From contig JARDVH010000128.1 in assembly GCA_030324005.1 (NCBI GenBank), positions 12,385,786-12,449,785 of the forward strand: a stretch of DNA of 64,000 bases. Direction: 5' to 3'. Shown here piece by piece: positions 2,983 to 64,000 of this stretch. Position 1 is the first letter of the stretch; the number at the start of each line of letters is the position of its first letter. The notes beneath the pieces are model-generated. The model saw only the letters and a program-made list of their open reading frames with translations. It had not been told where the DNA came from and searched no databases. The stretch is from Negaprion brevirostris. Taxonomy: Eukaryota. A program made the position numbers and the translations under genes.

Positions 2983-3009
2983 GTAAGGCCTCCTGAAGAG
3001 ACTTGGACA

Positions 3010-3873: not shown

Positions 3874-3998
3874 GTGGCATAGTGGTACAGTGGTTAGCAC
3901 TGCTGCCTCACAGTGCCAGGGTCCCGGGATCAATTCCAGCTTCGGGTGACTGTTTGTGTGGAGTTTGCATGCTCTCCCCGTGTCTGCGTGGGTTTCCT
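3874..3998 (+). mobile_element. HE1-like V-SINE, 5' part (runs into a gap)
   Basis: tRNA-like head cagtggttagcactgctgcctcacag plus V-domain tgtggagtttgcatgctctccccgtgtctgcgtgggtttcct. Confidence 0.88.
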
Positions 3999-4098
3999 NN
4001 NNNNNNNNNNNNNNNNNNNNNNNNNNNNNNNNNNNNNNNNNNNNNNNNNNNNNNNNNNNNNNNNNNNNNNNNNNNNNNNNNNNNNNNNNNNNNNNNNN

Positions 4099-4215
4099 CT
4101 CTGTATCTAACCCCGTGCTGTACCTGTCCTGGGAGTGTTTGATGGGGGACAGTGTAGAGGGAGCTTTACTCTGTACCTAACCCTGTGCTGTACCTGTCCT
4201 GGGAGTGTTTGGTGG
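4099..4215. repeat. 70-bp tandem satellite unit, about 1.6 copies visible next to a gap
   Basis: ctctgtatctaaccccgtgctgtacctgtcctgggagtgtttg recurs at 4099 and 4169. Confidence 0.85.
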
Positions 4216-4651
4216 AAATGCTTTGTGGAATGAATGATAACTAGTTGTGTTTCACAGCTCTAACCTTGATAATGAGAGTACTTATTCCTGTCAATGAAAC
4301 AATTGTACAGTGTGAGGATTCTCTGAAAGATTTGCCCTGGCATGCCTGCTCTGAGAGATTAATCTGAATACGCTGACGGAAACAATGGATTCCAATGCCG
4401 TTTGCCTCTTTATCCTTTTGTAGAGAATCTAAAAACTGTCAGAGATTAACCTGAGGGATCTTTGAAATAATAAAGCTGGTTTATGTAAATGGAACTGTGG
4501 GCAGATGAAGACAGGAAGTCTTATTTTTATTTATATAGTCACACAAATCCTTTTCCTTTCGCAGAGTCTGACCTACTGGAACTCCATTTAACACCCTATA
4601 ATTACAGACACAAATTCTAATGGCAGATTGATTGTGAGTCACCAGAATGTA

Positions 4652-4952
4652 ACGGTGGCACAGTGGTTAGCACTGCTGCCAGGGATCCAGGTTCGATCCC
4701 CAGCTTGGGTCACTGTCACTGTGGAGTTTGCATGCTCTCCCCGTGTCTGCGTGGGTTTCCTCCGGGTGCTCCGGTGCCTCCCACACTCCAAAGATGTGCT
4801 GGTTAGGTTGTTGACTTTGCCAGATTGCCCCTTGGTGTCAACAGGATTATCAAGGCAAATAAGTGGGGTTACGGGGGGTAGGGCCTGGGTGGGATTGTGG
4901 TAGGTGCAGACTTGATGGGCCAAAATGGCCTCCTGTGTTGTAGGGATTCTAG
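4652..4952 (+). mobile_element. HE1-like V-SINE, full length, CR1-type tail (tail A)
   Basis: A/B-box head (ggttcgatccc), V-domain, tail gatgggccaaaatggcctcc...tagggattct. Confidence 0.9.
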
Positions 4953-10827: not shown

Positions 10828-11295
10828 AACATAAGAGTCAGGAGCAGAAGTAGGCAAATTCAGCCCTTTGAGCCTGTTCCATCATTCTGTCAGATAACGG
10901 CTGATCTCTCCCTGGTCTCAAATTCAGCTCCCCATCAGTTCCCCATTTCCCTTATCCCATTTTTTAAAATTAGAAACATATCTATCTCCTTCTTGAAACC
11001 ATTCAACAATTAAGACTCCTCTGCGCTATGGGACAGCGAGTTCCACAAATTCACCACCCTCTGCAAGAAGTAGTTCCTCCTCATCTGAGTTTTAAAGTCA
11101 TCGCCTCTCAACCTATACCTGTGACCTCTTGTTCGAGACTGCCCCACAAAAGGAAACATTTGGTCTACATTTACTTTATCAATCCCTTTTAGTATTTTAT
11201 ATACTTTGATCAGATTCCCTCTCATTCTTCTAAACCCCAACAAGTATAAGCCCAAACTGTTTAAACTCTCCTCATGCATCAACCCATTCATCAGG
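10828..11295 (-). mobile_element. CR1-clade LINE 3' fragment
   Basis: ORF 11010..11408 contains LGLYLLGFRRMRGNLIKVYKILKG...RTRGH...YFLQRVVNLWNSL. Confidence 0.92.
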
Positions 11296-13123
11296 TATCC
11301 TATCTGGTAAAGTACTTTGGGGATCTTACTGAAATGTGATAAAAGCAGCATGGCAGAATTACAGAATGGAAAAGCAGGTGGCATATATAATGTGCGGGCC
11401 CAGTCCACTCAATTTCCCTTCCATCGCCAATGTTGAATTCCCACTACGTATCTCTCTCCCCTTCCCTGCACCTACAGAAACTCAAGACCTTGCCCTGTAG
11501 TTTTGTCCCCTAAATGTAATTGTCTGCTCTTTGTGCAGTGTTATGATAGTCAGTAACCTTTCTCAGCTGCATCAATCTTGGTTCCTGAGCTCATGTCTTC
11601 CTCTGCTGGCTTTCAATCATGTTCATTACTTGTCCTGGTTTTAAAATGTAAAAGCACTTGCATTTGCATGATACCTTTCATGACCACAGGCCTCCTTTCA
11701 CCACCACCACTGCCCCCCTGCCACCTCCCTCCCCCCCGCCGAGTGCTTCACAGCCAATGAGGTATAGCCGCTGTTGCCGTGTAGGAAATTTGTAGTGCAA
11801 CAGCAGGAGAGACCTGGATCAATGTGGTTTAATTAAATGAAGGTACTCAAGCAAATTCATCTGACAGCTAGAATTTGCTTTAATTGCACCAAGAGTAATT
11901 TCATCCCTAAAGGGATCTGTCGTTATGACTCTTCTCTTGCATGACAAAATGCTTCAATGACATAACCTATATCTGTAGCTTGAATGCATCCCTGCTTAGC
12001 TGCACTGATTTACTTAGAGTTGCTGCTTCAGACAAGTTTGGTTACCGACCCGAGGCCACCGAGCTAGCAGAAGTTAGTGCTGACTGAAGGCAAAATGCCA
12101 GAGAAGTTAATGGAGCAGGTTCCAGATAACCTTTAGGAGCAGCAGTGAATTTCAACACGAGCTAACATGTAATCAATATGAAGTGATCACCTAAAAGGTT
12201 GGAGGCATAATTTTTCTCAATGACAATTCAAATAATTGAGTACTTTCTACTGACAGAATTCACAAAACCTTTAAAGAGAATGGGAGAGCGCTAATAATAT
12301 ATAAGCAGACAAGTGCATGGCATAGCATAGGAAACTATCAGGAGTAGGCCATTCAGCCCCTCGAGCTTTTCTGCTGATCAGTTAACTTACACTGATATGC
12401 ACCTGGATTGCATTCACCTGACTCCATATTCCACACTCTGAACTAACAATCATCCATCAATCTCCGACTCAAAAGCTCTAATCGCCCTACGATGGTATTA
12501 ACTTGTATGATCCTTCGTTCAAAACAACTACTAGCTCTGCAGATTCAGCATAACGTAGGTGGGAGATATTGCCTTTTGAGCCAACATTCATAGGCAGGGT
12601 AGAAATTCAAGCCCATTTAGCTGAAGCAAGGACCAGGACAGACTGGGTACAGCTGTGAGGGCTGCGTTGGCTGAATTACCTGCTTCCAGACCCAACAAAG
12701 AATGGTTGCTTGGGAATGATGAAAGTTAGCTGACGGTATCTATTAATTGAAAAGAAGGATGAAAATGTCGAGGAGAGAAAAAGATGTAATAAAAAAAAAA
12801 GCCTTGCGAGACTGAAAAATCTATTAAATTTTATTACAGTCTAATGGCTATCTCTTTATAGCTGAGGTATTTTGGAATATTTTCTCTGCTCTTCATTGTA
12901 CTGTAACCTTCCTCATTCATACATGCACTGCAGGTTTGAAGATAATAATTTCTAACAGATTAAACCTACATTCCTTTTCACGTATCACAGCTCTTTCATA
13001 AAGAGCCTTTTATTACTTTGCCTGAAAGCTCTTATTAGCTTCAAAAGCCAGTAAATGCATTGTGGCATGCAGTGTGCGCGCGTGTATATATTTCACACAT
13101 TCTAATCATTGCACCCCTTCCAG

Positions 13124-13374: not shown

Positions 13375-14185
13375 TAGAAACTAGAAGAGGGAGTAGGCCA
13401 CTTGGCCTTCCAGCCTTAGCCGCCATTCATTTTGATCATGGCTGATCATCAAATTCAATATCCTGATTTCCCCCTTNNNNNNNNNNNNNNNNNNNNNNNN
13501 NNNNNNNTGATCCCTTTAACCCCAAAAGCTATATCTAATTTCTTCTTGAAACTAGACAATGTTTTGGCCTCAAATACATTCAGTGGTAGTGAATTCCACA
13601 CATTCACCACTCTCTGGGTGAAGAAATTTCTCCTCACCTTAATTCTAAAAGGTTTACTCATTATCCTCAAACTATGACCCCAAGTTCTGGATTCACCCAC
13701 CATTGAGAACATTCTTTCTGAATCAACCCTGTCTAATCCTGTTAGAATTTTATAAGTTTCTATGAAATCCCCTCTCATTCTGCTAAACTCCAATGAATAT
13801 AATCCTGAGCAACTTATTCTCTCACATGGCAGACCTGCCATCCCAGGAATCAGCCTGGTAAACCTTCTCTGCACTCCCTCTTTAGCAAGGACACCCTTCC
13901 TCAGATAAGGACACCAAATCTACACACAATACCCCAGGTATGGCCTCACCAATGCCCTGTACAATTGTAGTAAAACATCCCTATCCCTATTCTCAAATCC
14001 TCTCACACTGAAGGCCAACATCCCATTTGCCACCTTTACTGCCTGCTGTACCTGTGCATTTACTTTCAGCGACTGATGTACGAGGACACCAATGTCTCGC
14101 TGAGTATCCACCTCTCTTAGTTTACACCCATTCAAATAATAATCTGCCTTCCCATTATTGCTACCGAAGAGGGTAACCTCAAATC
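13375..14185 (-). mobile_element. CR1-clade LINE 3' fragment
   Basis: ORFs 13455..13874 and 13920..14252 give QRRFTRLIPGM, FFTQRVVNVWNSLP and LYRALVRPYLGYCV. Confidence 0.93.
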
Positions 14186-14244
14186 CATAATTCTTTCCCA
14201 ATCCACCTAATAACTTGATACAATAACTCAATGATCCAATTCTT

Positions 14245-15570
14245 GCATACATTGTTCACAAGGCAAGCATTTGTTGCTCATCCCAAGTTGTCATTGAGAA
14301 GGTGGTGGTTAGCTGCCTTCTTGAACTACTGTAATCTGTGTAGTGCAGGCACAGCCACACTGCTGTTAGGGAGAGGTTTTCAGGATTTCGACCCAACGAC
14401 AAAGAGGAAACAGTGATACATGTCCAAATCAGAGTGCTGGGTGACTTGGAGGGTAACCCAGAAGTGGTGGTGTTCCCGTGTTCTTGCGACCCTCCTCTTT
14501 CTGGTTGGTAGAGGTCGTGGGTCAAAGTGATGTGGTTGACGAAGTCTCAGCAATTTGCTGCACTTCATCATGTTGATGGTACACACCCACAACCATGATG
14601 TGTTGGTGAGGGAGTAAATGTTTTTAGAGGTGGATGTGATATTGATCAAGTGGCTTCTTCATCCTGAATGTTGATGAGCTTCTCAAGTGTTTGGCAGCTG
14701 TACTCATCTAGACAATTGGAGAGCACTCCGCACACTCCTGGAATGAGCCAAGTAAGTTCAAATCTTGATGCCTGTTCTGTGCAGCATCGGTTGATCTCTG
14801 CTGAGACAGCAGTAGGAGCAACTTAATGACCAGGAAGCGCTCCTGCATCATATCACTGTCCAACACATAATCCTTACTGGAAAGGCAATGTGTGTGGGTG
14901 TTCTCTTGGTACAGAGTCAGGCTCAGCTCTGATTCCAGCACAACCACATTCCACTCTGTTCATCCTCATTGCTCAGGTTTATGTATGAGAAATGGTTGCA
15001 TTCTACTCCCTTACAAGCTGCCAGCTGGGAGTGTGCCATTGACCAGAAACTGAACTGAAGCAATCACAAAAATGTGTTGGCAGCTGGATCAGGTCAGAGG
15101 CCGGATATTCAGCACTTAGTGATTCAACTCCTGATTCATCTTACCATTTACAAGTCTTGTAGGGAATACTCTCCATTTGCCTCGATGCAACAGTGGCAAC
15201 AACAACATAAGATTGACAACATCTAGGGCAGCCCAATTGCACCACCTTGAACAGACATTTCCTCCACCTCACCTGATGAAGGAACAGCGCTCCGAAAGCT
15301 CATGATTCCAAATAAACCTATTAGACTTTAAACTGGTGTTGTGAGACTTCTAATATCCCAGTCCAATGCCAGCATCTCCACCTTATTCAATTTAGGCATG
15401 AGTCACCTTTCCATCATTGTCACTGAACTCCCTACCTGACCTCACCATGACAGTACCTTCACCACTAACTGCAATGGTTCAAGGAGGCAGTTCACCTTTT
15501 TAAGGACAATGAGGAATGGGTAATAAATTCTGATGTTGCCAGCAAAGCCCACATCCCAAAAACAAACATT
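14245..15570. mobile_element. Fragments of a second CR1/L2-type LINE family in both orientations (- 14245-14760, + 14990-15570); more at 17795-18070, 30480-30920, 35340-36750, 59430-59890
   Basis: Mutually similar 3' blocks (cagcagttcaagaaggcagct...aattagggatggg); endonuclease motif LDLILTN...SDH in ORF 59586..59825. Confidence 0.7.
15268..15381 (+). mobile_element. Penelope-like terminal-repeat fragment with a hammerhead-ribozyme-like motif
   Basis: tcacCTGATGAaggaacagcgctccGAAAgcTCatga followed by aataaacct...ggtgttgtgagactt; same family as 41832-41955, 54462-54689 and 58388-58460. Confidence 0.65.
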
Positions 15571-15765: not shown

Positions 15766-16031
15766 TGGTTAGCACTGCTGATTCTTGGCTTGGGTCACTG
15801 TCTGTACCGAATCTGCACGTTTTACTCCTGACTGCGTGGGTTTCCTCTGGGTGCTCCAGTTTCCTCCCATGGTCCAAGAGGCGTGCTGATTAGGTGCACT
15901 GGCCATGCTAAATTTTCCCTCAGTGTACCACAATAGGTGCTGGAGTGTGGCAACTGAGGGATTTTCACAATAACTTCATTGCAGTGTTAATATAAGCCTA
16001 GTTGTGAAAACAATAAATAAACTTTAAACTT
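15766..16031 (+). mobile_element. HE1-like V-SINE with alternative tail B
   Basis: Same head and V-domain, then ccctcagtgtacc...ggagtgtggcaact...cttcattgcagtgttaat...aataaataaacttt. Confidence 0.85.
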
Positions 16032-18074: not shown

Positions 18075-19950
18075 ATAAGAAATAAGAAAAAGGATCAGGA
18101 CCAGGCCATAGAGTTCATTGAGCTTGCTCCTCCATTAAGCCCAATACTGAATTCCACATGCTCATCCTATCCCCACATCCCTTGATTTGGTTAGTACTGC
18201 TGACTCACAGTGCCAGGGATCCTGGTTCATTTCTGGCCTGAGATCACTGTCTGTGCGGAGTCTGCACCTTCTCCTCTTGTCTGTGTGGGTTTTCTTTGAG
18301 TGCTCCGATTCCCTCCACAGTCCAGAGATGTGCGGTTAGGTTGACTGAGCGTGCCAATTGCCCCTTAGTGTCAGGGTAACTGGCAGGCCATGTGGTTCAG
18401 GGCTAGGGCCTGGATGGGATTGCTATTGATATAGGCTCAATGGGCCAAATGGCCTCCTTCTGCACTGTAGGGATTGTATGATTCCCTTGGAGCCCTAAAA
18501 TCTTATAAATCTTATCTTGAATATATTAATTGACCCAACAACCCGGAGTAGAGAATTCCAAAGATTCATCACCAAAGTGAAGGAGTTTCTCCTCGTCTCT
18601 ATCCTAAATGGCTAACCTTTTTCCTGATATTGTGATTTCCATGTTTTAGACTCTCTAGTCATGGGAAACAGCTTCTCCTTCTCAAGCCCTTTAAGAACTT
18701 CATACATTTCAATTNNNNNNNNNNNNNNNNNCTCGTTCTTCTAAACTCCAGAGGTTTAGACCCCTTCTACTTAATCATTGGATGGCCCACACTTTGCAGG
18801 AATCAGTTGGGTGTACACTCTTTTTTGTGTAAGGAGACCAAAATTCTCACCAAAGTTCAACATAATTACAGCAAGGCTATCTTACTGTTGCACACTGATG
18901 CCTTTCAATGAAGGTGAATATAGCATTTGCCTTTCCAATTGCTTGCTATACCTTCACGTTAACTTTCTACGATTCATTTTTAAGGAGTCCCAAATTCTTC
19001 TGCAACATTTACTTACTTCTCATTTTTTTAAAACACTTTATGCTTTTCTTTTCTTCCTACACAGGTGGACAGTGTTGCACTTCCCTACAATATATTCCAT
19101 CTCCCAATCTTCTTGCCCAATCACTTAACTGGTCTATTTGCCTTTATAATCTTTTTGCATGCTGCTGACAGCTCACTTTCCCGTCCAGTTTTGTATCATC
19201 AACAAACTTAGAGATAACGCACTTGGTCCCTGACCCAAGTCATTGATTATAGGTTGTAAATAGCTGAGGCTCAAGGAATGATATTGTGATATTCCACTAG
19301 TCACATCCTGACATCCCAAAAATAATTTCGACTCTGTTCATGGTCCATTAACATCCTCAATCCATGCTGATGTGGCCCCCAATCAATCCCATAAACCCTA
19401 ATCTGGATAACAAAGTCTTATATTGCACCTTATTGGAGGCCTCTGAAAATCCAAATATACTACTATTGATCACCCCTTATCTACCCTGCTAGTTACTGTA
19501 ACAGATTTGTCCCATATGATTTCCCCTTTGTAAGATAAAGAAGAAAATGTGTGTTTATGACAGGTGTCAGGTGGAGAATACATTTGAGAAACGAGGAATA
19601 CAGAAGGTTCAGAAGGGAGTGAGAAAACAGAATAGAGAAGTGAAGAGTGATTATGAGAAATGCTGACATCCAACATAAAGGAGAACCTCAAAGTCTACGA
19701 TAGGCCTATGAAAAGTTGAAGGAAGGTAAAAGAAGAGAAAGGACAATAAGGAACCTAAAAGGGTATTTACACAGGGAGGTTCAGGGCTTGATAACAATTT
19801 TGTGATTCTGTGATAAAATCCCATTGACTCTGCCTTATCATATTGTGATTTGCTAAGTTCCCTGTTATTTAGTCATTAATAACAGAATCTAGTACTTCTC
19901 TTCTGATGTCAGGCTAACAGGTCTATTTCCCAGTTTTTCTCTCTCCTTTT
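18075..19950 (-). mobile_element. Old CR1 LINE fragment interrupted by an HE1-like SINE (18187-18483, +)
   Basis: CR1 tail cataagaaataag..., agagaattccaaagattcatcacc and gttttgtatcatcaacaaactt (reverse of KFVDDTK); nested SINE with V-domain. Confidence 0.75.
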
Positions 19951-25059: not shown

Positions 25060-25277
25060 CAGTGAAGTGACACAGTGGTTAGCACTGCTGCCTCATAGCA
25101 CCAGGGTCCTGGGTTCAATTCCGGCCTCAGGTCACTGTCTATGTGGAGTCTGCACTTTCTCACCATGTCTGTGTGTGTTTCCTCTGGGTGCTCCAGTTTT
25201 TCCTCCCACAGTCCAAATATGTGCAGGTTAGGTGGACTGACCATGCTAAATTGCCCCTTGGTGTCCCAAGATGTGTA
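25060..25277 (+). mobile_element. HE1-like V-SINE truncated at a CR1 insertion
   Basis: Head and V-domain up to gtgtcccaagatgtgt, abutting a CR1 tail. Confidence 0.88.
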
Positions 25278-33929: not shown

Positions 33930-35663
33930 GTATGTAGCTGTTAACTTATAAGATTAGCTTTCTTTGGTGAAAGGTTCAAATGAAATGCCAGTCCTAGTGA
34001 TGCAGACTGAAGATCTCCTGTATGTTGTAAGCATCCAGGGCTCGTTAATGATATGTAAACCATGTCATTAATATTTAAATTTCCTGTATGTATTTAAAGC
34101 TTTCGCTACCTTAAGATATGAAGCATTTTTTTGAAGGATGAGGGACAGTGATATAATGACTGACTCATGTCTTTGACTTACTGCTGATTGAAAGGAGTCC
34201 AAATAAATTCAATTAAATTCTTGCTGAATGTGGCGACACAGCACAATGCGAACCCTAATTTGCAGTGATTAGTATCTACCAAAAAAAACTTGGGACCAAG
34301 CCATAACCATGAAAAATTAAGAATGATTTATAAACGCGACTAGGCTACAGTATTGTGCAGCAGTGTGAGGTGATGTAATGGTGTGATATGAGTTACTTTT
34401 GACTATCCTTGGTGTCCATTATCTTCTCATCTGCCTGAGAATCTTCTTCATTATTTTTTACTCTTCTTGTGCCATGCGTTTAACTTGGTGAAAGATGTGG
34501 GATGGAGATCAGCTCCAGCCTGTTGTCAGTAAGCCAGTTTTGCCTTGTTCCTTGGAAAGAAATTTCTCGACCTCCACTTGACTCCCGCCCCAGGGCAGCA
34601 TGATAAAAGTAGGGAATTCACTGCCTCGGACTATCTATGATCACAAACACGCACATGTTCCATGCTGCAGTTTGTCAGAGCTGGAATGCATCCAGGCNNN
34701 NNNNNNNTTTTATGTTGCTGAAAATTAAAAAAGCTCACCAGTGTTTCATTCACTCCTTTTACACCTAGAGCGGTCATTTTGAGTTTGCATGATGGTGTAA
34801 CCTGAGCAATTTCCATCGAGTTCCAATAGATATGCAAATTGGGAGATTTATAATTGGTGTCCGCATTGATGTCACTGATTTCACTTGGTTACTCAAAGTC
34901 AAAATCATTCCCAGTCCACTTATTTCAATCATTGTATTTAGGTTTATAAAGCACATTTGATACAATGATGGGGGAGATTACCTGACCTCCCCGTGGCATG
35001 TTTCTCACAGCGGGAGGCAGCACCCCATTTGCGGGCAATGGGATCTTCCAGTCCCGCCGCTGTCCACGAGATTTCCCGTCGACTGAACCCCAATGCTACC
35101 GGGAAACCCACAGAAGATCAGAATTAGAAGATTCCACCAGTATGAACAGCTGGAAAATTCTTGTCAATATGTTTGATCATGATATCCTGCTAAAGAAGAA
35201 CCATCATGTNNNNNCAGTTATTTACACAATCTCTCCATCTCTTAACATATTTTAATTTCCTTTACTATGCATTAACCTATCTTAATATAATATCAGCCAT
35301 TTGACCATCTGACCTCATTATAGCATGGGATCAAACGTGCACAAAAATGTTAAATTCAGAGGTGAGGTGAGAGTGACTACCCTTGACATCAAAGCAACGT
35401 TTGACTGACTGTGGCACCAAGGACCCCTAGCAAAACTGGAGTCAATGGGAATCAAGGAGGCAATTCTCAGCTGGTTGGAGTCAGACCTAGCACAAAGAAA
35501 GGTGGTTGTTTAATGTCAATCAACTCAGTCCCAGCACATACATGCAGGAATTTCTTAGGACAGTGTCCTCAGCCCTATCACTTTCAGCTGGTTCACATGC
35601 TGAAGTTATCCATGTGCATTTGCAGCAAGANNNNNNNNNNTGGACAACATTCTGACTGCAGCT

Positions 35664-35972
35664 TGGTGGCACAGTGATTGGCACTGCTGCCTCACAGTGC
35701 TGGGGACCCAGGTTCAGTGCTGGCCTCGATTCATTGTCTGTGTGGAGTTTGTAGGTTCTCCCTGTGTCTGCGTGGATTTCATCTGGGTGCTCCAGTTTCC
35801 TCCCACAGTCCAAACTTATGCAGGTTAGGTTGATTGGCCATGCTAAATTACCCCTTAGTGTCGGGGGACTAAATAGATAGAGTGACAGGGATAGGGCCTG
35901 GGTGGGATTGTTCTCAGTGCAAACATGATGGGCCAAATGGCCTTTTTCTGCACTGTTGGGATTCTATGATTT
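35664..35972 (+). mobile_element. HE1-like V-SINE (tail A) nested in a LINE fragment
   Basis: Head, V-domain and tail gatgggccaaatggcct...gggattctatgatt. Confidence 0.88.
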
Positions 35973-44400: not shown

Positions 44401-46324
44401 TGCCTGTCACACATCTGGAGATAGCTGGTGTGCGTTCTGAACACGTCCTGACATGCCAATGCTCTTCAGCCCTAGTTGGGCTCCTCCTGACGTCACTCCC
44501 CCTCGGCTTGTACCTAGTTTTCTGATGAATCATCTCATCCAACACCTGAGGTTGGAAAAAATGGTTTGGTTATGAGACCCAATGTAAATCCAGAAAATGG
44601 ACCATGTGAAGAAGGCTTTTTTGACATGGCCTTCGTTCCTAGAGCAGTTGCAGTTCACCAGTGGGAATGCATGGCCCTCCACAGGCTACACCCAGAACAA
44701 CTCCCATCCCACAGTAGCCTCCTCCCACAACAACCTGATTTTTGAGCTAAATTTCCTTGCAGGACTTGATATCCAGCAAGGTGGCAGTTTCTTTGTAGCC
44801 ATGTCAATGGACACTGACATTGTGACCCTGTAGCTGGAGCCCATCCACCTCCACCCTCCCTCTGTCACCCTTGAGCTTCCTCCCATCTACCTTCCCCTCA
44901 CCACAATATTACCTTGCTCTTTTCCCCAATCAGCGTGGAGCATCCAACCATCACCCCTGGTTCAGAACCATTAATCCACTCTCTTCCATCTTTCATCCTC
45001 ACTCCAGCACCCCCACCCTCCCACCATCATCTTGGAGCATTTGTCTATCACCCTTTTATTTTCCCTTGACCCTTCTTCAAAGGCTATTGGCCTGCCTCCT
45101 CTGAAGCTGGGCCTGCCCTGCTTTAAACTCAAGATCCATTCCTTGAACATTGACCTGCCATGTGTGGTGCAGCTGCCTCCCGTGATCTCTGCAACAATGG
45201 GCTGTGGGCTGGAGTTTGGCTCCCTTCTGACACCTTCTCCACAACGCCACCCCCCCCCCCCGCCAAATATGCCAGTGCTTTGCCGTGTTGCCACTTGAGG
45301 ACACGAGCATTAGCCCCATCCTCTTGCCAACCCAACCACTGTGCTATCTGAGGACCTGAGTGCCACGCTTTCCACTATCATTCATTCCACTATGGACTAT
45401 CCCCTGGTCCTGTCTCCTGAGTTAGACAAAGATAAAACCTCACTTCAGGTCCAAAGGTTGAACAACCTTGTCTGGTACATGCCATCTTTAAGCTATCATG
45501 AAACAGCATGCATTGGCCATGCTAAATTCTCATTCAGTGTACCCGAACAGGTGCTGGAGTGTGGTGATTGGGGGATTTTCGTAGAAACTTCATTGCAGTG
45601 TTAGTGAAAGCCTACTTGTGGCACTAATAAATAAACTTCAAAAAACTTTTTAAACAAAAGACACAAGTTTCCCATATGCCAATAACCTAATCCTGAAGAA
45701 AAACTTAATTTGGTGTGCTTCCCAATTAACGAGTATTCATGGTATGCAAATGAATGTCAAATAGAATCCCACCACCAGGCACTGCATTGGCAGTTCTGCT
45801 GCTGGCACACGACCCATTTTGTCTCATAAAGTCAACCCAATATTGAGGAGCCAAGATTTTGGCTTTCACCTAATTAAGTCCCAACCCCCCCTCCCCCACC
45901 TCCAGCCCCAGCCTGTCACATTTCCTGTACTTACAGGCCACACCAAATTCCACCCAGAGAGTCTGGGTATGGTGCATCTAAAGAGGAAATTGACTTGAAA
46001 GCTATTTCATGGAGAGAGGATTTCAAGGAAAAAGAAGAAAAGAACATCAATGTTGGATGGCTTGAAAATTGAAGGAAGTTGTTGGCAAGTAAATAAACTG
46101 GCCCAATTTAGAGAGCCTAGAAAGGCAACTGTGAATCAAGATAGATCATACATGATGATGATGATGAATTCAATTCAGCCAACAGCAAAGAGGTGGGAAT
46201 CCACCTCCATCAAGAGCTTAAAGTTATCTGAATTAGTCTATTTCAAATGAATTCACTCAATATCCATATTTGGGCTGGGATTCTTCAGATTGAGCCCTGC
46301 CAGTCCCAGTTAAAGAAAATATCA

Positions 46325-46591
46325 GCATATGTATTCACTGGCAACATACTACCTGTGTGCCTGTGATGACTTCAGCCAGGCTAATAAGATTGGCTTGCTA
46401 GAGTATGAACTACCTGATGAGTCCTAAATGATGGTTAAATCAGGAAGCCTCATGCTCCCTATTTAAAGCAGGTGTGTCAGATTCCCAGCCTGCATTCAGC
46501 AGGGAGCAACTGGAGAGCTGGCTGTGTACAGATGTACGGTGTAAATAAAGTATCTTGGTGACTGGACTTTCACCCCCATGGAGTTATTGCA
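46325..46591 (+). mobile_element. Possible short solo LTR
   Basis: TATA-like tatttaaa, then aataaa, ending ggagttattgca, an LTR-like order; 5' end and TSD unclear. Confidence 0.4.
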
Positions 46592-46935
46592 GTGTCCTTG
46601 TGGCACATTTTCATTTCATCATCGATACATCACTTAAATTTTCATTCTTCATGGTGTCTGCTTGGAATGTCAGCAGGATAGTTGGTTGCGAGGAGCCTGA
46701 CATTTGCACACAAATGCTTTTTAGCAGAGAGGTCTATGGTTAATTACCAGTGACAAGAGGTCTGGTGGATTACTTCAGTATCCCATCAACGTTTCCAACT
46801 GTAATGCTGCCACCTTAACCTATCTGAGATTAGTTCACATGCCAAAAATTAAACAACTGGACATCAAACCCCTTGAACTTCCTGGTTTATTGACTTAAAG
46901 TGTAAGTCATTATTGTCATATTTAATAATGAGCCA

Positions 46936-47205
46936 ATACTTGCCTGGCAGGAGAAAGTCAATGATCAGGCAGGTTGATTTCTGTGGCTAGGGTAGAGTCA
47001 ATGATCAGGGTAGCCAGTAAGCTTTAACTGAGGTATCACCTGCTGCAATTTTTCAAAGCCATCTCGGCCTTTTGGCTAAGATAAAGCATCAGGTCAAGCC
47101 TTAGAAGTGCAATACCTCATTTTGTTAGCTTGGATCTTGTTTGTTTCTCTCATGGCGACCATGAATTGGATTCAATTTAAATTTGCTTTTATGGATGGAA
47201 TAAAA
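46936..47205 (+). mobile_element. U1+U2 snRNA-derived chimeric retroelement (SINEU-like)
   Basis: 46936-46981 matches recalled U1 nt 1-46 at 36/46 ungapped; 47062-47082 is identical to U2 nt 7-27; then about 110 nt of unique body ending in aataaaa. Confidence 0.7.
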
Positions 47206-47371
47206 CAATTTTTTAAGTATTCTCATTAGTCAAGTGTTCTTTAACTAATAAAACAAAATGAATAGACATTTTATTAAAATGAAGGTCCTCACAGCCTTCC
47301 AAAAGCAATAATGCATTCATGATTGAACAGTGCAATTCAGAGAATTTCTTAGCCTGTTTTTTGTGTTATAG

Positions 47372-47484
47372 CAAACACTGAGACCCCGATTCCCCAGTGT
47401 CATGTCAACTACTCCTGAACCACCTTGCAATGATTCAATTCTACGGAGGACTAGGGAAGAAGAACGGGAGTTGCCACATAGAAG
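47372..47484 (+). CDS. CARD11: CARD11 coding exon (approx. exon 13): QTLRPRFPSVMSTTPEPPCNDSILRRTREEERELPHR
   Basis: ttgtgttatag acceptor, AAG|gtaaga donor, 113 nt, phase 0-2; matches human SIMSITAEPPGNDSIVRR...PHR. Confidence 0.92.
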
Positions 47485-49189
47485 GTAAGAGATGCCCCAT
47501 CACTGGATAGGCAGCAAGTGATATTGGAGAGTTTATGACTTTATACAAATTGTCCCTGCTAAATGCTATCAGTGTACCATATCGCCAGATTATAAATCAC
47601 TTTCAATTATTGTTACTACAAATTGTAAGGAGGACTATAAACCACAGGAAACACCAGCCCCTAACTATCCTCACTACACACAAATGGAGCTGGTACATCA
47701 TCTTGGGATTGTTTTGACACCTGCTAATCTTAAAGGGATGTCCCAGTTTCCCAAAAACCTTACAGGGCCCCATTTAGCTCTTTGCACTTTTCTCTATTTA
47801 TTTCATCTTTCTCATGCTCCCAACTGTTTTGGATATTATTTGATCCTTTTCCAACGCTTTTGATTTCTCAGATTGTTGTACATTAACTTTTTTTTCACAA
47901 AACCTTAGAACTCCTCACCTCCCCTGAAGCATTGCTTCAAACTGTGGAACTTCACAATTCCCATGGACATCACTTCACTCTACAAACAAATACAAGCTTC
48001 TTACCATCTGATTCCCAAATCTTTCTTACCTCCATGTTTCTCCTCAATTGGCAATCTTGGTGGTATCCTTCATGGTGGACTTAGACCTTCCTTCCAGATG
48101 TACTAAATAATTTTTTAAAATGATGTGACAGAATTAATGTATGTGCTAACATTAACCTGCTACAGTAGATTATTCTGCTAAGCTTTGAGCAGTCATTAAG
48201 TAGATTTAACAGCTAGTTACCCATCGTAAACACTTCAGAAGACCATACATATCCCTTAACTTTAAACTCAATATTGATACACTCATTAACAAATAGCAAC
48301 CTTTCCCTCGGATTTGGCATGAAAAAATATAATTTAATTGATCTGCCTTTTATTAATCCCTGTTAACTGTAGATGTTTGATCTCATTATGCTTCGAAGCT
48401 TTAGGACTGTTTATCGAGCTTAGCTGCAAGCTGAATTTCACTGTCAGGTTTGGATACATTCTTCTGCTGAAAATTCACGTAGATACATCTGGTTGTCTCT
48501 TCACCATTTCCTTGTGTTCACTTTAGTGCCCATCAATATTGCCGAGTGTACAACAATAAATAATAATTAGATTTTGTACTTCTGCTTATGTTTATTTCTG
48601 ACCATTCAATTTGTAATGAATTTTTTTTTATTTCATTGTCATTTTAATGAATATTGCAATTGTCAAGGNNNNNNNNNNNNNNNNNNNNNNNNNNNNNNNN
48701 NNNNNNNNNNNNNNNNNNNNNNNNNNNNNNNNNNNNNNNNNNNNNNNNNNNNNNNNNNNNNNNNNNNNTTTTTTTATTTCATTGTCATTTTATTGAATAT
48801 TGCAATGGTCAAGGTTGGGAAACGAAACCATGAATGAATCCACTTTTTTTGTCATTCAGTTTCAGGATCAAGTAGTCCTGAGGCTCATACAACATGGTTA
48901 GATGCAGATGAATGTTCTCATCAACAATGTGTCTTTCACGTAAGCTGAGATGAGCTGCCTACACAGCTCCAATGTGACACCCCTGTGCAATACAAAGCAT
49001 TGAATGCCAATTTAGAGATGCTTCGTACTGAACTACGGGTTAGTGTCTCACACAAATGAGCTGCAGCTGTCCATGTTCAGTTCAAGTAAAATCCTGACAG
49101 GCAGCAGAAGAGAGATGTGCATCCCATCTGAATTCAAACTTAATTTTCAGGTGCAGAAAGAAGGTATCCTAACCCACTCCACCACCTCT

Positions 49190-49478
49190 GGGTAACACAT
49201 TAGTTAGCACTGCTGCCTCACCACCAGGGATCTGGTTTCGATTCCTGGCTTGGGCCACTTTCTGTGCAGAGTCTGCACATTCTCCCTGAGTTGGCGTGGT
49301 TTTCATTCAGGTACTCCAGTTTCCTCCCACACTCCAAAAGACGTGTTGCTTAGGTGCATTGGCCATGTAAAATTCTCTCTGTGTACCTGAACAGGCACCA
49401 GAGTGTGGTGACTAGGGGATTTTCACAGTAATTTCATTGCAGTGTTAAGCCTACTTGTGGAAAAAATACAAAAAAACT
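49190..49478 (+). mobile_element. HE1-like V-SINE with tail B; tail-B fragment also at 45510-45642
   Basis: Head, V-domain, then gtgtacctgaacaggcaccagagtgtggtgactaggggattttcacagtaatttcattgcagtgtt and an A-rich end. Confidence 0.87.
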
Positions 49479-55578: not shown

Positions 55579-56984
55579 GTAAGAATCATTGTGCAGTACC
55601 ACGAGGAAATGGCAAGGTTTGAGAAATGTTGTTGCACTGGCTGATGCAGGAAAAAAGGAAATTGATATAAATGCTAATTCACACCAGTGTTAGCATTGAG
55701 AACATTGATTGTGTCCATCTAAAATGGAAAATGAGAATGCATTTTGAAAACTACACAGATAATCAAGTGTCTGCCTGATTGAAAAGCCAAGAAGCAATCT
55801 GAGATCTCTGACAAAGTGTAAGTGGTTATTCTCATTGCTGTTGCATCCTTATTGATAGGTACATGATTGTGTGGGATTGATTGTAAACTGTCTGGTAACA
55901 GATACAAGTCACCAGCCATTTTACAAGCAAATGTAAATTGAAATAAATTATTTATATTACCACGAAGCAAACACCAAGACCTGTACGATGAAGGTCAAAA
56001 GTTTTTTAACCAGGCATGTTTCAAAAGTTGAAATGAGCTTAAATTATCAGGCACTGCTGCCTAAAACTCTATCTACATACTCTGTTTGGACACTCAAGTG
56101 CCAGCTTGGCTTGGTGGTTTGCACATGTGCCTTTGAGTCAGAATGTTGGTCATTCAAGAACTTGACTATTCTAGGCTCACAGCAACGCTAGGGGAATGCC
56201 ACATTACAAGAGGAGCCATCTTTTGTATGTGAGGCTGCATCAGTCTCTCGCTTATCTTAAAAGAACAAGGGGATCTCAGAGCTACCTGGTCAATATTTAT
56301 CCCTCAAACAACAGATTCTCAGCACTCCGTTTGTGCTGTACACAATAGATTATCACATTTGCCTGCCTAACAACAGTGACAATGTTGCAAAAGCGTTCGA
56401 AGTATTTGAGATGCCTTGGGACATTTTGAGGACATGAAAGATGCTAAGCAAATCTTCACAGAATGATAGTCCTGTATACTTGCAAGCCTCATCAAAAAGT
56501 ACATTGAATTTTGACATTAGTTTTGTTTTCTATGCTGGGCCTTGGACAATTATTATTTATTCATCATGGCAAAAGAAATGGGGAAATGAGGAGGATATCT
56601 TTTATGCAGCAATGTGTTATGATCTGGAACACATGGCTAGAATGGATGAAAGCAGATTCAACTTTAATTTTCAGAATGGAATTGAATATATTCTTGAAAA
56701 GGAGAAACTTGTCAGGCTATTGACAAAGATCAGGGGAATAGGGGCAAATAGATAGTTCTTTCAAAGAGCTAACTAAGACATAATCGGGTGAATGGCCTCC
56801 TGCTTTGTCCTCCAAATGCATTGAAAAATGGGACTGTGAAATGTCTTGGAGCAAGGTTTTCCAGCCTGCCCTGCCACAGGATCATCCAGTCCTACCTAAA
56901 GTCAATGGACTTTTAGCTGGGCAGCCAAATCGCACACAGCAGGTCCCACCACTAGAGGGCCAGAAGATCCTGCCCTGAGTTTTA

Positions 56985-57275
56985 GTTAAAGATTATTTAT
57001 TAGTGTCACAGGCTAACATTAACACTGCAATGAAGTAACTGTGAAAATCCCCTAGTTGCCACAGTCCGGCACCTGTTTGTATACACTGAGGGAGAATTTA
57101 GCATGGCTATTACACCTAACTAGCACATCTTTTGGACTATAGGAGGAAGCCTGAGCACCTGGAGGAAAGCCACACACACACANNNNNNNNNNNNNNNNNN
57201 NNNNNNNNNNNNNNNNNNNNNNNNNNNNNNNNNNNNNNNNNNNNNNNNNNNNAGGCAGCAGCACTAACCACTGTA
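56985..57275 (-). mobile_element. HE1-like V-SINE with tail B; another minus tail-B fragment at 61690-61815
   Basis: Reverse of tail B (cattaacactgcaatgaagtaactgtgaaaatcccctagttgccaca) and of the head (aggcagcagcactaaccactgt). Confidence 0.85.
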
Positions 57276-58560
57276 CTACTGTTGATGAAATAGCTAATCT
57301 AGTCTTTTTCAACAATTTATCTTTTGCTGTTTGTTGAATGGAAATATATAAGATGGGATGAACCAAGTGACTGCTCCAGTGGTTAGCACTGCTGCCTCAC
57401 AGTGCCAAACACCCAGGTTTGATTCTGGCCTTGGGTGATTGTCTGTGTGGAGCTTGCACATGACAGCTTCTCAATCACTCCATGTGGTGGCAAGTTCCAC
57501 ATTGTAACCACTGTCTGGAGAAAGAAATTTACCCTGAAGTTTTTACTAGAATTGTTAATGACTCTTTAATCTTTATCACTCCTAGTTATGGACTGCACAC
57601 CTCTATAAAGTAGATAAATTTAATCTGTTTATTCACTTTCCACCTCCTAAGGTTGAGGCTGTATCGTTGTAGAGTTTGTGATTAGGTCAAACATGCCAAT
57701 CGCGTGCAGTTCAACTGTGCCCTTAAAATTCTGAATATGCTAATTAGATTTCTAATTTCCTTCCTTCAGTGTAAACATTTGTATTTCAGAAAGGGTGTTA
57801 TACAATATAAATAACTATCTGCAGTTCACTATAGAATTATTAATTAGAAGAGAATTAACCTTTACAAAAGACCTTAAATCACTCAGGAATTTATAAAGCA
57901 GCCTTAATTAATCTTGAATGACAGGCTTTAAGATAGGGAAGTTGCTATATGTTTTTTTGTATTCTGGGGCTGAAATCTTATTTGTGGAATTAAAATTCCA
58001 TTCCCAGGCAGTCCTACCAGACAACTTGCTAGTCTTGGGAAAAGGCCCCTTGAGACATTAAGGCAATTGTACCTTAATATTTATTGCCATAGCAACAGTA
58101 GATCATATTGTCCTTGCAGATACCATGGGTTTTTTTACAGAAGATAAACTAATGTTGCCAGTTCTTCTTAAGGTTAGAGTTGAAAATTAGTTATGGCTCA
58201 TTTTTGAGTGTGATCATTTCACATCTGTTGCTTTTGAAGTAGACAACACACAAGTTTAATCTTCTCACAATATCACGATACTGTGAGTGAAGGTATTGCT
58301 CGCTGCCTGCATGCTCAGCACGGGGCCAAACAGCATGCACTGCTGGCACATCTTCTGGAAGGGCTGCTTCTGGCAGCCTGTACTGATGATGTGGAGATGC
58401 CAATGTTGGACTGCGGTAAGCACAGTAAGAAGTCTCATAATACCAGGTTAAAGTCCAGCANNNNNNNNNNNNNNNNNNNNNNNNNNNNNNNNNNNNNNNN
58501 NNNNNNNNNNNNNNNNNNNNNNNNNNNNNNNNNNNNNNNNNNNNNNNNNNNNNNNNNNNN

Positions 58561-59245
58561 GTTTGCACATTCTCCCCTTGTCTGCATGGGTTTCGTCCAG
58601 GTGCTCCAGTTTCCTCCCACAGTCTAAAGATGTATGGGTTAGGTTGATCGGCCATGCTAAATTGCCCCATAGTGTCAGGGGGATTAGCTGGGTAAATATG
58701 TGGGGTTATGAGGATAGGGCCTGGGTGGGATTGTGGTCAGTGCAGATTTGATGGGCCAAATGGCGTCCTACTGCACTGTAGGAATTCTTTGAGACATCTC
58801 CTGCCCACCATTCCACCAGCCTTGCGTGGTGCTCAATAACCCCATCACCCCAAGGAAATCTGTCTGTATCTGGTAGGGGAAATTTGGTATGTCTGCGATG
58901 ACTTTCACCAATTTTAGGGTGGCACAGTGGTTAGCAGTGCTGCCTCACAGCTCCAGAGACCTGGGTTCAATTCCCGGCCTCGGGTCACTGTGTGGAGTTT
59001 GCACATTCTCCCCATGTCTGCATAGGTTTCTTCCAGGCATTTCGGTTTCCTCCCACAGTCCAAAGCTGTGCAAATAAGGTGGACTGGCCATGCTAAATTG
59101 CTTCTTAGTGTCACAGGATGTGTATGTTAGAGAGATTAGCAAGGTAAATATGTGGGGTTTCGCGGATAGGGCCTGGGTAGGATTGTTATTGGTGCAGACT
59201 CGATGGGCCGAATGGCCTCCTTCTGCACTGTAGGGGTTCTATGAT
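58561..59245 (+). mobile_element. Two HE1-like V-SINEs with tail A (58561-58790 and 58917-59245)
   Basis: V-domain and tail A in both; the second is full length. Confidence 0.9.
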
Positions 59246-61019
59246 CACTAACCCAGCAGCAATTCCTGGCATTCAGGTTCACTCCTAACACCCACATACA
59301 CTTACTCACCTCTCGCATGTCCAAATAGCCTCATACCCAGTTCTCACAGACCTCCAAAGAACAAAGAACAACACAGCAGGGGAAACAGGCCCTTCGGCCC
59401 AACGAGCCTGCACCGCCATCTTAACAATGTATTTTTCCTACACCACCCTTGACCCGTGTCTATGCTTACGGGGATATGCCAGGCCATGAGGTTACAGATT
59501 GTGGTTGAGTACAATTCTGTTGCTGCTGATGAGGACCTCATGTGGACCTCAGCACTTCATGGATGCCCAGTTTTGCTGGATCCGTTCAAAATCTATCCCA
59601 TTTAGCATGGTGGTAGCGCCACACAATACAGTGGAGGATATGTTCAATGTGAAGACAGGAGTTTGTCTCCACAACGACTGTGCAGTGGTCACTCTTACTG
59701 ATACTAATGATATTCTTATGGACAGACGCATTTGCAGCAGGCAGGTTGGTGAGAATGAGGTCAAGCATATTTGTCCCTCTTCTTGGTTCCCTCACTACCT
59801 GCAACAGAGCCAACCTAACAACCACGTCCTTTAGGTTTCAGCTAACTCAATTTTGTGGTGGTTCTTCCGAGCCACTCTTGATGACGGACATTGATACGAG
59901 AACCGACAATGGTTTCATCATTGACTTTTAATTCCAGATAGTAATTGAATTCAAGTTCCACCCTCCACCATGGTGGAATTTGAACCACAGTCCCCAGAGC
60001 ATTTCCCTGGGGCAATTTTTACCTTTGGATTACAAGTGCAGTGACAGAACCATTAAGACTCTCCCGAGACCCTGTAATGGTTCTGTTTTATTGAACAGTC
60101 TCAACATTGCCAATCTGGCCTCATAACTGAAATTTCTCATGCCTGGAAGCACTGTTATAAACCTCTTCCGCACTCTCTCCAATGTGTTCACATTCATCCT
60201 ATAGTGTGACACCCAGCACTGTACACAATATACAGCTGAGTGGCTGAGATCTAATTATTGCTATAACTGCAATCTCCAAAACTACCAAAGGCCATCACAA
60301 CAGAATCAATGTAGGCCCTGTCCTGTGGACCTCTTTTAGTAAAGTCATGTAATGCAATTCTGGAGTTAACAATTGTTCTGTCAATGACATGGCTTCAGTG
60401 GAATCCCTTTCCCAACACCAGTGTGTACTGATTTTTATTCTGTAAATTTGCTTGAGCAGGTTATTTCTTATGTTAACATGTGGGGGTGGAGGTGGATTTG
60501 ATAAGACACGGGTCAGGTAGGAGGCTCTGGTTCGGAGGCAGACTGCATTAATCTAGCACCTACAACATCAGTAAGTGTACCAAGGCGCTTCACTGATAAA
60601 CACTGACAACAAGCTCACAGGAGGAGACAGAAAGGGCTAGAGTTTGGGCTCCAGCTAGGGCCAAAATGGAAGGTAGCTGGAAGCTAAGAACAGCTGTGTC
60701 AGCTGGAGTGGTTTGACAACTCCATCCTGCCTCCAGACCATGTTCGTGGAAGGGAGTTTGGCAGCCAGCAGGGCCACCTGACTGCAACAATTGGACACAT
60801 TAAAGACCACTGGACCAATTAAAGGAGGCTTTCCAGTCTGGTTTCTGCATGTGGTAGGGGCTGGTTTAGGTCCCTGAAGATGGCGTCCCAGCAGAATTAG
60901 GCCAGAGGGCCAGTGTTTCAATCAGCCCTAGAGGCACTCGCTGAGGTGCAGGAGCAGCCAGAGGTCACTCTCCTCCCTCTCACCCCGCAGAGTGGGGGTC
61001 TGGAGAGAGTAGAGATTGG

Positions 61020-64000
61020 AAAGTGCAGAAGGAGGTATTCAGCACATTGAGTCTACACCTACTCTCCAACAGAGCATCTTACCCTGGCAATTCCCCACTC
61101 CCATGTCCGTAACCCGCTTATATACATGGCCAATCCCCCCCTAACCTGCACATCCTTGCACACTAAGGGGTAACTTACCATGGCCAAACTACATAACCCG
61201 CACATCTTTGGACTGTGGGAGGAAATGCCCACAGACAGGGGGAGAATATGCAAACTCCACACTGACAGTCACCCAAGGCCAGAATTGAACCCAGTTCCCT
61301 GGCGCTGTGAGACTGCAGTGCTTCCATTGTACCATCATGCCACCCCTACTTCTGATTGGCTCTCAAAGCTGGAAGACCACTCTGTCTCCAGGCTAATCAA
61401 GGGGACACAATGAAAATCACAATGACACTGTTCCTGAAACTCCTCTCTCCTCAGCCCCCGCAGAGAATGGGGGCACCTTCAAAATCCAGAAGCAGTCGTA
61501 GCTTTTGTTCCTGCTCCATTCCCCTACCACCCTCCCTCCTCCTGGCCCCCGCAACCGTGAGGCAATGCAAGCCCACAAGAGGTATTGAGAAGTGTAACTA
61601 AAGAGGAGGAGTGTTTGAAGTTGGAGGGGAGAGAAGAAAATAAGGAGGGAATACTAGCTTAAGGTGCAGAAAGCACGACAATCATTTAAAAAAATTATTT
61701 ATGATTACCAGTAGGCTTACATTAACACTGCAACGAAGTCATTGTGAAAATCCCCTGGTCGCCACACTCCAGCGCTTGTTCAGGTACACTGAGGGAGAAT
61801 TTAGTATGGCCAGTGAGAGAATTTAGTATGGCCAGTGAAGCTGTGGTAGGCACATTAACCAAAAACACTGTCACAAAATCACTGATATTTTGCCCTCTCT
61901 CTTGTTGGAAAAGATCACGCACAATAGAAAAGAACATTGTAGGGCCATGGGAGACTGGGACCCCACACGTCCAGAGCCCTTTGGGCAAGGTGATCATCTG
62001 TACCCTGGGGCTGGTTGCAACAGAACCTGTGGCACGTGACTTTGCTGGGAACATTGAGGCTGATGGTATTTTCTTACCTTATACCCCTCCTCAACTCCCA
62101 ACTCCTTATCACCCTGCAGATGGGTAACTCAGTTACTGGAACTGTCCATATCTTAGACACTAGNNNNNNNNNNGCCAAGGGGAAAAGACAGTTCATGTGC
62201 TATCCTTCCAGAGGATAAGGGCACAGACAAATTCTAATGCAGAGGTCTCAGAGGAAGACTTTGTTGCAGTAGCAAACAGTGCAGTGAAGTGCTGATGAGA
62301 ATGCACACTGAGATGCTGGTGCATTGACTGACCTGTCACAGCCTCCCATCATAGTTAAGCAGCATGAAAGAGCCTGATTCCAACTTGGCAGAGGAGATGG
62401 CGCAGAGCTTGCCTTCTCCACTGTTTCTAGAATCATGAATCATGGAACCCCTACAATTCTGCAAGAGGCCATTCAGCCCATTGAGTCTGCACCGACCACA
62501 ATCCCACTCATGCCCTATTTCCATAACTCCACATGTTTATTCTGCTAATCCCNNNNNNNNNNNNNNNNNNNNNNNNNNNNNNNNNNNNNNNNNNNNNNNN
62601 NNNNNNNNNNNNNNNNNNNNNNNNNNNNNNNNNNNNNNNNNNNNNNNNNNNNAACCCGTGCATCTTTGGACTGTGGGAGGAAACCCATGCAGACATGGGG
62701 AGAATGTGCAAACTTCACACAGACAGTGACCCAAGCTGAGAATCGAAGCCGGGTCCCTGGCACGGTGAGGCAGCAGTGCTAACCCACTGTGCCACTGTGG
62801 TGCCTGTCAAAACTTATGATTCAGACAGGCTCCATAAAACACTTTGGAGTTTGTGACCTGAACCATTACAGTATTTCTCCTGGTGCCATTTACTGCTTTC
62901 ATATTTGCTCTGTAATCGTCGTCACATTAATAATAAGATAACGACACCGTCTTTATAGCTTTGCTGCAACTTACAGTTTAATTCAGCATTCATTGACATT
63001 TCAGCATTGTTTGACAGCAGGAGGATAGCTGGGTAGATATTCTGTCCTCTTTCTACCCAGGTGAATGATGTGTACCTATTCAAAAATGTTAAATCAGTGC
63101 AGGGTTCATCAAACTGCAAGTATTGGTGATTCTATTAATGTCACCCTCACAAAAACACATTGTTAATGAATGAAAAGGTAATGATTTGCAGGCTCCCATT
63201 CTGAGCTTCATTTCCACTTGGTCGACATTGTCACTGACACCATTGAGAATTCTCCCAGGAGAAGTAGCTGAAGGCAAGCTGTCTCGGACAGGCTGAGTGT
63301 GACACAGTCAACGCCTTCAGGGGAGGAGGGAGAAAATCTGAGGAAGAATTACCTCAAGGCAGAGGTAGAATGGTTTCTTTTATTTCTTTCCTCCACCAGT
63401 TTCCTCCCAACCCTCTCTGGGTTCCCTCTGACCAAGTGACCATCTTTTCCCTTCAACTTGGGCTATCAAGTACTTACAGCAAAGGGCCATTCAGCCCATC
63501 TGATGTGTGCACTCCACACATGCCTCACCTTTATCTAACCTCCCAAACTCTCCCTTACTGTCTCTTGTAATTATTTAGCTTCTCTTAAAATGTATCTATT
63601 CTATTCATCTCAACTACTTCCTGTGGTAGCGAGTTCCACATTCCAACTGCTCTCTGGATAAAGAGATTTCCTGGATCCTCTAATGGATTAATTCATAGAA
63701 TCCCGACCAGTGCAGAAGGAGACCATTCGGTCCATCGAGTCTGCACCAACCACAATCCTATCCAGGCCCTATTCCTGTAATCCCACATATTTATCCTGTT
63801 AATCCCCTGACACTAGGGTCAATTTAGCACGGCCCATCAACCTAACCTGCACATCTTTGGACTGTGGGAGGAAACCGGAGCACCCGGAGGAAACCCATGC
63901 AGACATGAGGAGAAGGTGCAAACTCCACACAGACGGTGACCTGAGGCTGGAATTGAACTTGGGTCCCTAGCGCTGTGAGGCAGCAGTGCTAACCACTGTG
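61020..64000 (-). mobile_element. Three minus-strand HE1-like V-SINEs with tail A (61020-61343, 62430-62803, 63693-64000)
   Basis: cacatctttggactgtgggaggaaa...tgcaaactccacac...gaggcagcagtgctaacc in each copy. Confidence 0.9.

Follow-up and report, generated by a model that had tools for sequence, protein, structure and literature searches.

Retroposons headed by spliceosomal snRNA sequence are known from crocodilians, where the SINEU elements carry U1/U2-derived heads and are mobilised by Tx1 (Tx1-Mar, with a preference for targets of the Mariner-N4 type; Kojima 2015, PMC4494074). According to the available part of that paper, U1/U2-headed Tx1 families (Tx1-2_Crp, Tx1-11_Crp) also exist in crocodilians, SINEU also inserts without target-site duplication, no SINEU family was detected in other organisms and the route of transcription was left open. 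Shared internal structure served there as the argument against independent chimeras. Keno (Tx1) and Utopia insert between nt 38 and 39 of U2 (PMC4640811, available text). The described SINEs of cartilaginous fishes, SacSINE1 and the CmiSINEs, are short, old and high-copy like the family reported here, but have tRNA-derived Pol III heads, L2/CR1-type tails and no snRNA parts in the available text of PMC5499810. Our literature search found no snRNA-derived SINE from a shark, and later papers, in the text available, still cite only Kojima 2015; subscription journals, Repbase and Dfam lay outside the search, and the chance that the shark family is already catalogued is about one in three.

The window analysed here is a stretch of 64,000 nucleotides of Negaprion brevirostris DNA. 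At 46936-47205 it holds an element which an earlier note, made from the sequence alone, had described as a U1-U2 chimeric head on an unrelated body. We read it, with a probability of about 0.8, as an old copy, in an intron, of a shark U1-U2 repeat that is dispersed and high in copy number, and that is likely a SINEU-like non-autonomous retroposon moved by a poly(A)-recognising, probably Tx1-group, LINE. The observations behind this reading are the multicopy occurrence, the boundaries, the shared junction and duplication, the poly(A) tails, the structural variants, the orthologous presence and the kept stem-loop I. No second copy of the element was found within the 64-kb window. Coordinates are given in the table.

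The + strand of the window encodes part of CARD11, ten exons of which were mapped by tblastn. The mapped exons are 88-93% identical to nine of ten shark CARD11 entries, 83% identical to the Stegostoma entry over a longer aligned span than in the other sharks, and 83-85% identical to rays and chimaera; one exon shows 100% identity with the Rhincodon protein and 95-98% with other cartilaginous fishes. The element lies in sense orientation in an intron of roughly 6 kb (about 41297-47371). The acceptor AG (47370-47371) is 166 nt downstream of it, in agreement with the distance of about 170 nt given before. The exon that follows, which presumably carries the PKC sites, received no name from the protein atlas.

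Other repeats are present in the window. A stretch with the look of a solo LTR ends about 345 nt 5' of the U1 head, and in run X1 the depth doubles in bin 46561-46592, at this putative LTR. Organism E has several indels at a small inverted repeat just 5' of the head. An abundant repeat of about 300 bp presumably resembles the shark SINE HE1. HE1 is a short, old, high-copy SINE with a tRNA-derived Pol III head and an L2/CR1-type tail, and is not known to have snRNA parts. Decayed LINE fragments on the minus strand are presumably CR1-like, and one of them (59589-59837) has a weak endonuclease Pfam match.

Table. Features of the element and of its surroundings, in positions of the 64-kb window
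Feature	Position	Strand	Basis or remark
U1-derived head, U1 nt 1-43/48: 5' end (A7G) and stem-loop I	46936..46983	+	Rfam U1, real U1 genes, kept pairs, starts of other copies
Second partial U1 copy (U1 nt 10-34), internal duplication	46984..47009	+	Self-comparison, shuffles, in-register presence in other copies
Linker between U1 and U2 parts	47010..47061	+	47036-47057 may be decayed U1 nt 83-104, and 47055-47061 may be decayed U2 nt 1-6
U2 nt 7-31 (stem-loop I)	47062..47086	+	24/25 identical
Insertion of about 20 nt relative to U2	47087..47104	+	Family consensus before 47107 reads as tandem repeat of U2 nt 23-31 (by eye)
Body, likely diverged U2 nt 29-123: branch-site region (branch-point recognition sequence mutated), stem IIa/IIb and Sm-site regions	47105..47202	+	Alignment to U2 genes L001/L002; highest family depth
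AATAAA and decayed tail	47199..47215	+	Other copies: 4-5 nt spacer and poly(A) behind 47205
Downstream CARD11 exon (linker region)	47372..47484	+	34/36 residues identical to Chiloscyllium CARD11 560-595
Putative solo LTR	46350..46592		By eye: TG...CA ends, TATA-like and AATAAA motifs
Small inverted repeat	46888..46912		
Abundant repeat of about 300 bp	3874..4951, 15780..16028, 18188..18483, 25066..25277, 35662..35972, 45509..45647, 49188..49474, 56978..59245, 61022..64000		70-86% alike
Decayed LINE fragments	11013..11408, 13458..14255, 59589..59837	-	

Real snRNA genes were used as references, L003 and L006 for U1 and L001 and L002 for U2; all were fetched with motifs of the element, and part of their identity to it is by construction. 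L003 and L006 are complete vertebrate-type U1 genes on two Cetobacterium MAG contigs (JBOFLW010000086.1, JBOFRT010000241.1), which are likely host DNA binned into bacterial genomes. L004 and L005 proved to be chance bacterial matches and were dropped.

When the window was scanned with Rfam, U1 (RF00003) at 46936-47085 was the only one of five matches below E 0.06, scoring 43.9 bits with E 9.3e-8 for the whole 64 kb. The match starts exactly at U1 nt 1, as had been claimed. The head is identical to L003 and L006 at 34/46 and 35/46 positions, where 36/46 had been given before; these genes were fetched with a pattern fixing about 21 of the 46 compared positions, and the Rfam score is the independent figure. 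U1 nt 1-43 correspond to 46936-46978, and the A7G change in the U1 5' end is present. The internal duplication was also borne out: 46949-46969 and 46989-47009 are 86% identical, and the duplicated piece corresponds to U1 nt 10-34, with 1-2 of 2000 shuffles as good. The head had further been thought to continue into later U1 and to be fused directly to U2 nt 7. Neither was upheld: the linker at 47036-47057 aligns to U1 nt 83-104, but 377-1160 of 2000 shuffles match it, and four bases, read by Rfam as decayed U2 nt 1-6, stand before U2 nt 7. U2 nt 7-27 are exact, as stated earlier; the two U2 genes compared were fetched with this very motif, and the Rfam U2 consensus aligns to the same stretch. 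Rfam matched U2 weakly at 47055-47256 (E 0.69 on the window, 0.043 on 4 kb). A functional U1 or U2 snRNA gene was rejected, both scores being below gathering (U1 43.9 against 69.5 bits, U2 24.7 against 46 bits). The upstream 100 nt were not promoter-like, since 407-559 of 575 controls scored as high against four real snRNA upstream regions.

The body had been taken for non-snRNA sequence. Instead, it proved collinear with U2 nt 29-123, with about 58% identity, and on sequence comparison is likely a diverged U2. Alignment of 47105-47202 to L001 and L002 gave 56/96 and 59/95 identical bases, equalled by 0 and 3 of 3000 shuffles and by 0 of 1928 genomic controls; the insertion after U2 nt 31 appears as a 20-nt gap. 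Without the 9-nt fetch motif, 31 and 84 of 3000 shuffles and 22 and 36 of 2104 controls did as well (P about 0.01-0.03), which was counted against the main reading. Taken on its own, the window copy thus gives moderate support for a U2 origin of the body. Independent support comes from other copies, because a long 3' variant continues into U2-like sequence: in all four runs analysed below, 52-69 contigs per run leave the window sequence at 47190, and past this point the consensus shows, by eye against L001, exact 7- and 9-base blocks of the region after the U2 Sm site with a 4-base repeat between them. The short variant and the window copy measure about 270-280 bp. The element shares with Keno and Utopia an association with U2 5' sequence (PMC4640811, available text), but the suggested involvement of Keno is not supported, as the U2 similarity crosses nt 38/39, the break is the roughly 20-nt insertion after nt 31, and there is no LINE sequence. 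At the 3' end the AATAAA noted earlier was found (47199-47204). The search for a target-site duplication at the window copy gave only AT-rich 6-7-mers. No LINE tail in the window matched the element, and no tRNA was found in the window.

Searching with the element returned 23 sequencing runs from 13 studies. Four of them (organisms A, D, G and E) were analysed at 80% likeness; the small-share runs (organisms F, H, I and one shark metagenome) were left out of the contig comparison. Contigs matching 46936-47205 numbered 2176 in X1, 2678 in X11, 2439 in X20 and 3213 in X15, while the flanks, single-copy at 80% likeness, gave about one contig each at a depth of 5-23. Depth rises at 46936, falls at 47205 and is back at flank level by 47233. 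The summed depth peaks in bin 47137-47168 (17,341, 35,000, 30,258 and 108,876), at about 1,800-6,000 times the flank; it is no copy number and is read only as an order of thousands. True U2 genes cannot explain this peak, because U2 is far under 80% alike there. The first head bin (U1) reached about 50-480 times flank depth at 80% likeness, only 3-8% of the peak, and the majority of copies are therefore truncated, U2-headed or provided with a more distant head. This low head coverage was counted against the retroposon reading.

Among the 32 pieces listed of 10,667, 18 come from other loci and run from the U1 head through U2 stem-loop I; 9 of these contigs are gap-free and X11 alone has 6. Some of the 18 are probably orthologous to each other across species. 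This evidence comes from the 32 pieces and from the listed part of the other tables, and that too was counted against the retroposon reading. Many copies carry the U1 duplication and the U1-U2 junction in register; together with the poly(A) tails given below, this makes the repeat a dispersed inherited family and not a one-off event. Two other copies among those listed (X11 record 10, X20 record 26) start exactly at 46936 and have unrelated sequence upstream. Behind 47205, a short spacer and poly(A) were seen in 54 contigs of X11 and 57 of X15, and were not among the matches listed for X1 and X20; beyond the poly(A) the flanking sequence is diverse (agreement 0.48). With thousands of contigs in four species sharing the junction and poly(A) tails, the SINEU-like multicopy family suggested in the earlier note is supported, and its alternative, a one-off template-switch chimera, is refuted for the family. 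The body motif found no match in metagenome or viral contigs, nor the U1 motif in viral contigs; these collections are poor in shark DNA and are no evidence either way. No RNA dataset was among the listed runs matching the element, which says nothing on expression.

The copies also differ in structure. In three of the four runs, a variant without the duplication carries U1 to about nt 52 and joins 46978 to 47044/47045, the window sequence from 47044 onward being common to it, and another junction variant joins onto intact U2 nt 3-6. In X15, joints from 47213 to 47062 and from 47185 to 47068 mark tandem copies, one of which starts at the U2 part right after the A-rich tail. Such variation bears on a rival reading, in which one or a few functional, shark-specific genes for a U1-U2 hybrid or U2-variant RNA gave rise to all copies by passive retrocopying and no copy ever acted as a master. 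The start at U1 nt 1, the compensatory changes in stem-loop I and the strengthened branch-site hairpin described below would suit a gene under selection, and the element has no internal promoter. However, the copies show at least two head junctions, the junction onto intact U2 nt 3-6, two different 3' ends and tandem arrangement, a pattern to be expected if one master followed another, and only 24-57 of 2176-3213 contigs are 99% or more alike, which makes passive retrocopying unlikely. We consider it highly unlikely that the repeat belongs to an autonomous Tx1-type LINE comparable to Tx1-2_Crp and Tx1-11_Crp, whether as its snRNA-derived 5' end or as a version of it with an internal deletion. 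Tx1 families with such heads exist and the 3' variant does extend past 47190, to an end beyond the sequence read, but the extension reads as the U2 stem-loop III region and not as LINE, the depth is at flank level within about 30 nt of 47205, and in two runs poly(A) follows directly.

At the CARD11 site, orthologous flank contigs enter the element in all four species, and no empty site was found in the four runs. X20 records 25 and 32 together cover the element; X11 records 9 and 16 and X15 record 24 enter it, and X15 record 17 does so by only 28 bases. Flanks differ between species by about 4-7%, whereas 51-62% of matching contigs are less than 90% alike to the window copy. Since the copies diverge more than the flanks, amplification largely predates the splits of these species. 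In organism G, among the matches listed, the 372 flank bases hold at least 25 of the 44 differences and the 220 element bases no more than 19, one of which is a further change at U1 nt 3. The proposal that the U1 5' end could pair in cis with splice donors is thus unsupported, the element being no better conserved there than its flank. A one-off chimera, or an exapted cis-acting splicing element at CARD11, would agree with the sense orientation close to the acceptor and with the occupied orthologous site in four species; against it stand the many copies with a shared junction, the conservation not above flank and the altered U1 5' end in organism G, and we regard it as extremely improbable. 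There is no sign of exaptation at this site, and the window copy is likely inert.

Ten of the 13-14 differences of the head from U1 fall in stem-loop I, where 10 of 11 pairs are kept, four of them by double-sided changes; random placements kept as many pairs in 455 of 100,000 trials. The comparison was made against the fish-gut MAG U1 genes and not shark U1, so that shark-specific U1 changes could explain part of this result, and it was counted against the retroposon reading. U2 stem-loop I is intact in the element. U2 nt 23-47 alone folds as a weak hairpin with pairs i+j=70, which is the branchpoint-interacting stem-loop; the latter involves G25, C28, A29, G31 and U32 and excludes extended stem I (PMC13019295, available text). 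Behind 47100 the X11 consensus runs gap-free in the register of this hairpin, with 19 of 29 bases identical to U2 nt 23-51. From pair 22-48 inward, all 12 positions are paired, where U2 pairs 10; at 22-48 and 28-42 both bases have changed, and three of six branch-point-reading bases are altered. Pair 24-46 is A-U, G-U and G-C in three runs and a mismatch in the fourth. These consensuses give the commonest base among mixed copies (agreement 0.62-0.78) and were read by eye. The window copy itself has lost three bases in the branch-site hairpin and folds in a shifted register. Folding of the whole element was no better than that of shuffles (z -0.57), and sub-regions gave z of -0.4 to -2.4. A promoter scan with Pol III box motifs found no A box, one B-box-like match with one mismatch and four runs of four or more T in the element.

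Class features of SINEU found in the shark family are the U1/U2-derived 5' region, dispersed copies with shared structure, poly(A) (decayed in the window copy), no convincing internal Pol III promoter and internal oligo(T). Similarity is closest to SINEU-2 of crocodiles and the gharial, which in the available text of PMC4494074 likewise has 5' U1 followed by 3' U2, a U1 end near nt 52, poly(A), recurrent U1 additions with partial duplications, no Pol III promoter and internal oligo(T). Unlike SINEU-2, which is described there as young, the shark family is old, most copies being less than 90% alike to the window copy; its U2 part is heavily remodelled after nt 31, and the window copy does not lie in a detectable target repeat. 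SINEU-3 keeps the first 32 nt and a middle part of U2 and inserts in tandem, and tandem copies occur in the shark family too. SINEU-1 became longer by gaining U1/U2 pieces at its 5' end, with a partial duplication in SINEU-1G, and the shark head is also duplicated. In contrast to both, as far as the same text describes them, the shark element keeps U2 after nt 31 in diverged form instead of deleting it, and is without the large unrelated 3' half of SINEU-1.

Homology with SINEU, by ancient inheritance or horizontal transfer, would account for the U1-then-U2 layout and for the U1 piece ending near nt 52 both in SINEU-2 and in the short-junction shark variant. Yet a comparison by eye of head nt 20-45 with the two versions of SINEU-2 in print gave 17/26 and 13/26 identical bases, against 16/26 for real U1. 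Neither version has the shark changes at nt 23/42 and 25/40, and no derived change is shared within the 26 printed head bases to which the comparison is limited; SINEU-2 is moreover missing even from alligator (PMC4494074, available text). Homology is thus very unlikely, and the shark U1-U2 family probably arose independently of crocodilian SINEU. The shark element is likely SINEU-like in its working; within those 26 bases, where the match is no better than to plain U1, nothing places it in a named crocodilian family. In the printed SINEU-2 head nt 20-45, U1 stem-loop I is likewise preserved, there by double changes at other pairs (21-43, 26-39; by eye, same source), and the kept stem-loop in both suggests parallel structural selection.

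For the origin of the retroposon family, we propose that a U2-derived core was retroposed first, that a U1 5' piece would then have been gained by template switch or by landing in a U1 gene, and that short tandem duplications would have given rise to subfamilies. The element would be copied by a LINE recognising poly(A), with Tx1 as the likely partner, since Tx1 mobilises SINEU and is reported from the whale shark, where full LINE1 is not (PMC8455134, available text). Since copies start at U1 nt 1, have no convincing Pol III boxes and contain the four T runs, the master RNA was likely made by Pol II from an external promoter, most simply that of a U1 gene at the source locus; read-through from host introns would be an alternative route. 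Selection on the master RNA likely kept the hairpins (U1 stem-loop I, U2 stem-loop I and the strengthened branch-site hairpin) and likely removed splice-site-reading sequences, so that the RNA could bind snRNP proteins without disturbing splicing. By analogy with established snRNP biology, the element RNA is predicted to bind U1-70K or Sm proteins. The lack of a target-site duplication, of an empty site and of a LINE tail match in the window was counted against the retroposon reading.

A more specific version, which we offer as tentative and rather doubtful, is an independently evolved shark retroposon whose RNA would be a splicing-disarmed snRNP mimic. Its transcription would be driven by a U1 promoter. 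Of the snRNA structures it would keep the hairpin that binds U1-70K, U2 stem-loop I and a locked branch-site hairpin, to which the long variant would add an Sm-like site, with the donor- and branch-point-reading bases mutated; the tandem duplication would make the branch-site hairpin compatible with stem-loop I. Such an RNA might ride the Sm/SMN assembly route to meet the LINE reverse transcriptase and re-enter the nucleus, as Alu does on SRP9/14.

The value of the finding falls if Repbase or Dfam already list the shark family. Through the exact start at U1 nt 1 the external-promoter model can be put to the test, and the old shared insertions are presence/absence markers for shark phylogeny. 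The compensatory changes point to the RNA structures that are important for mobilisation. With a second high-copy family of U1-U2 type, apparently independent of the first, snRNA-headed retroposons would prove a repeatable outcome.
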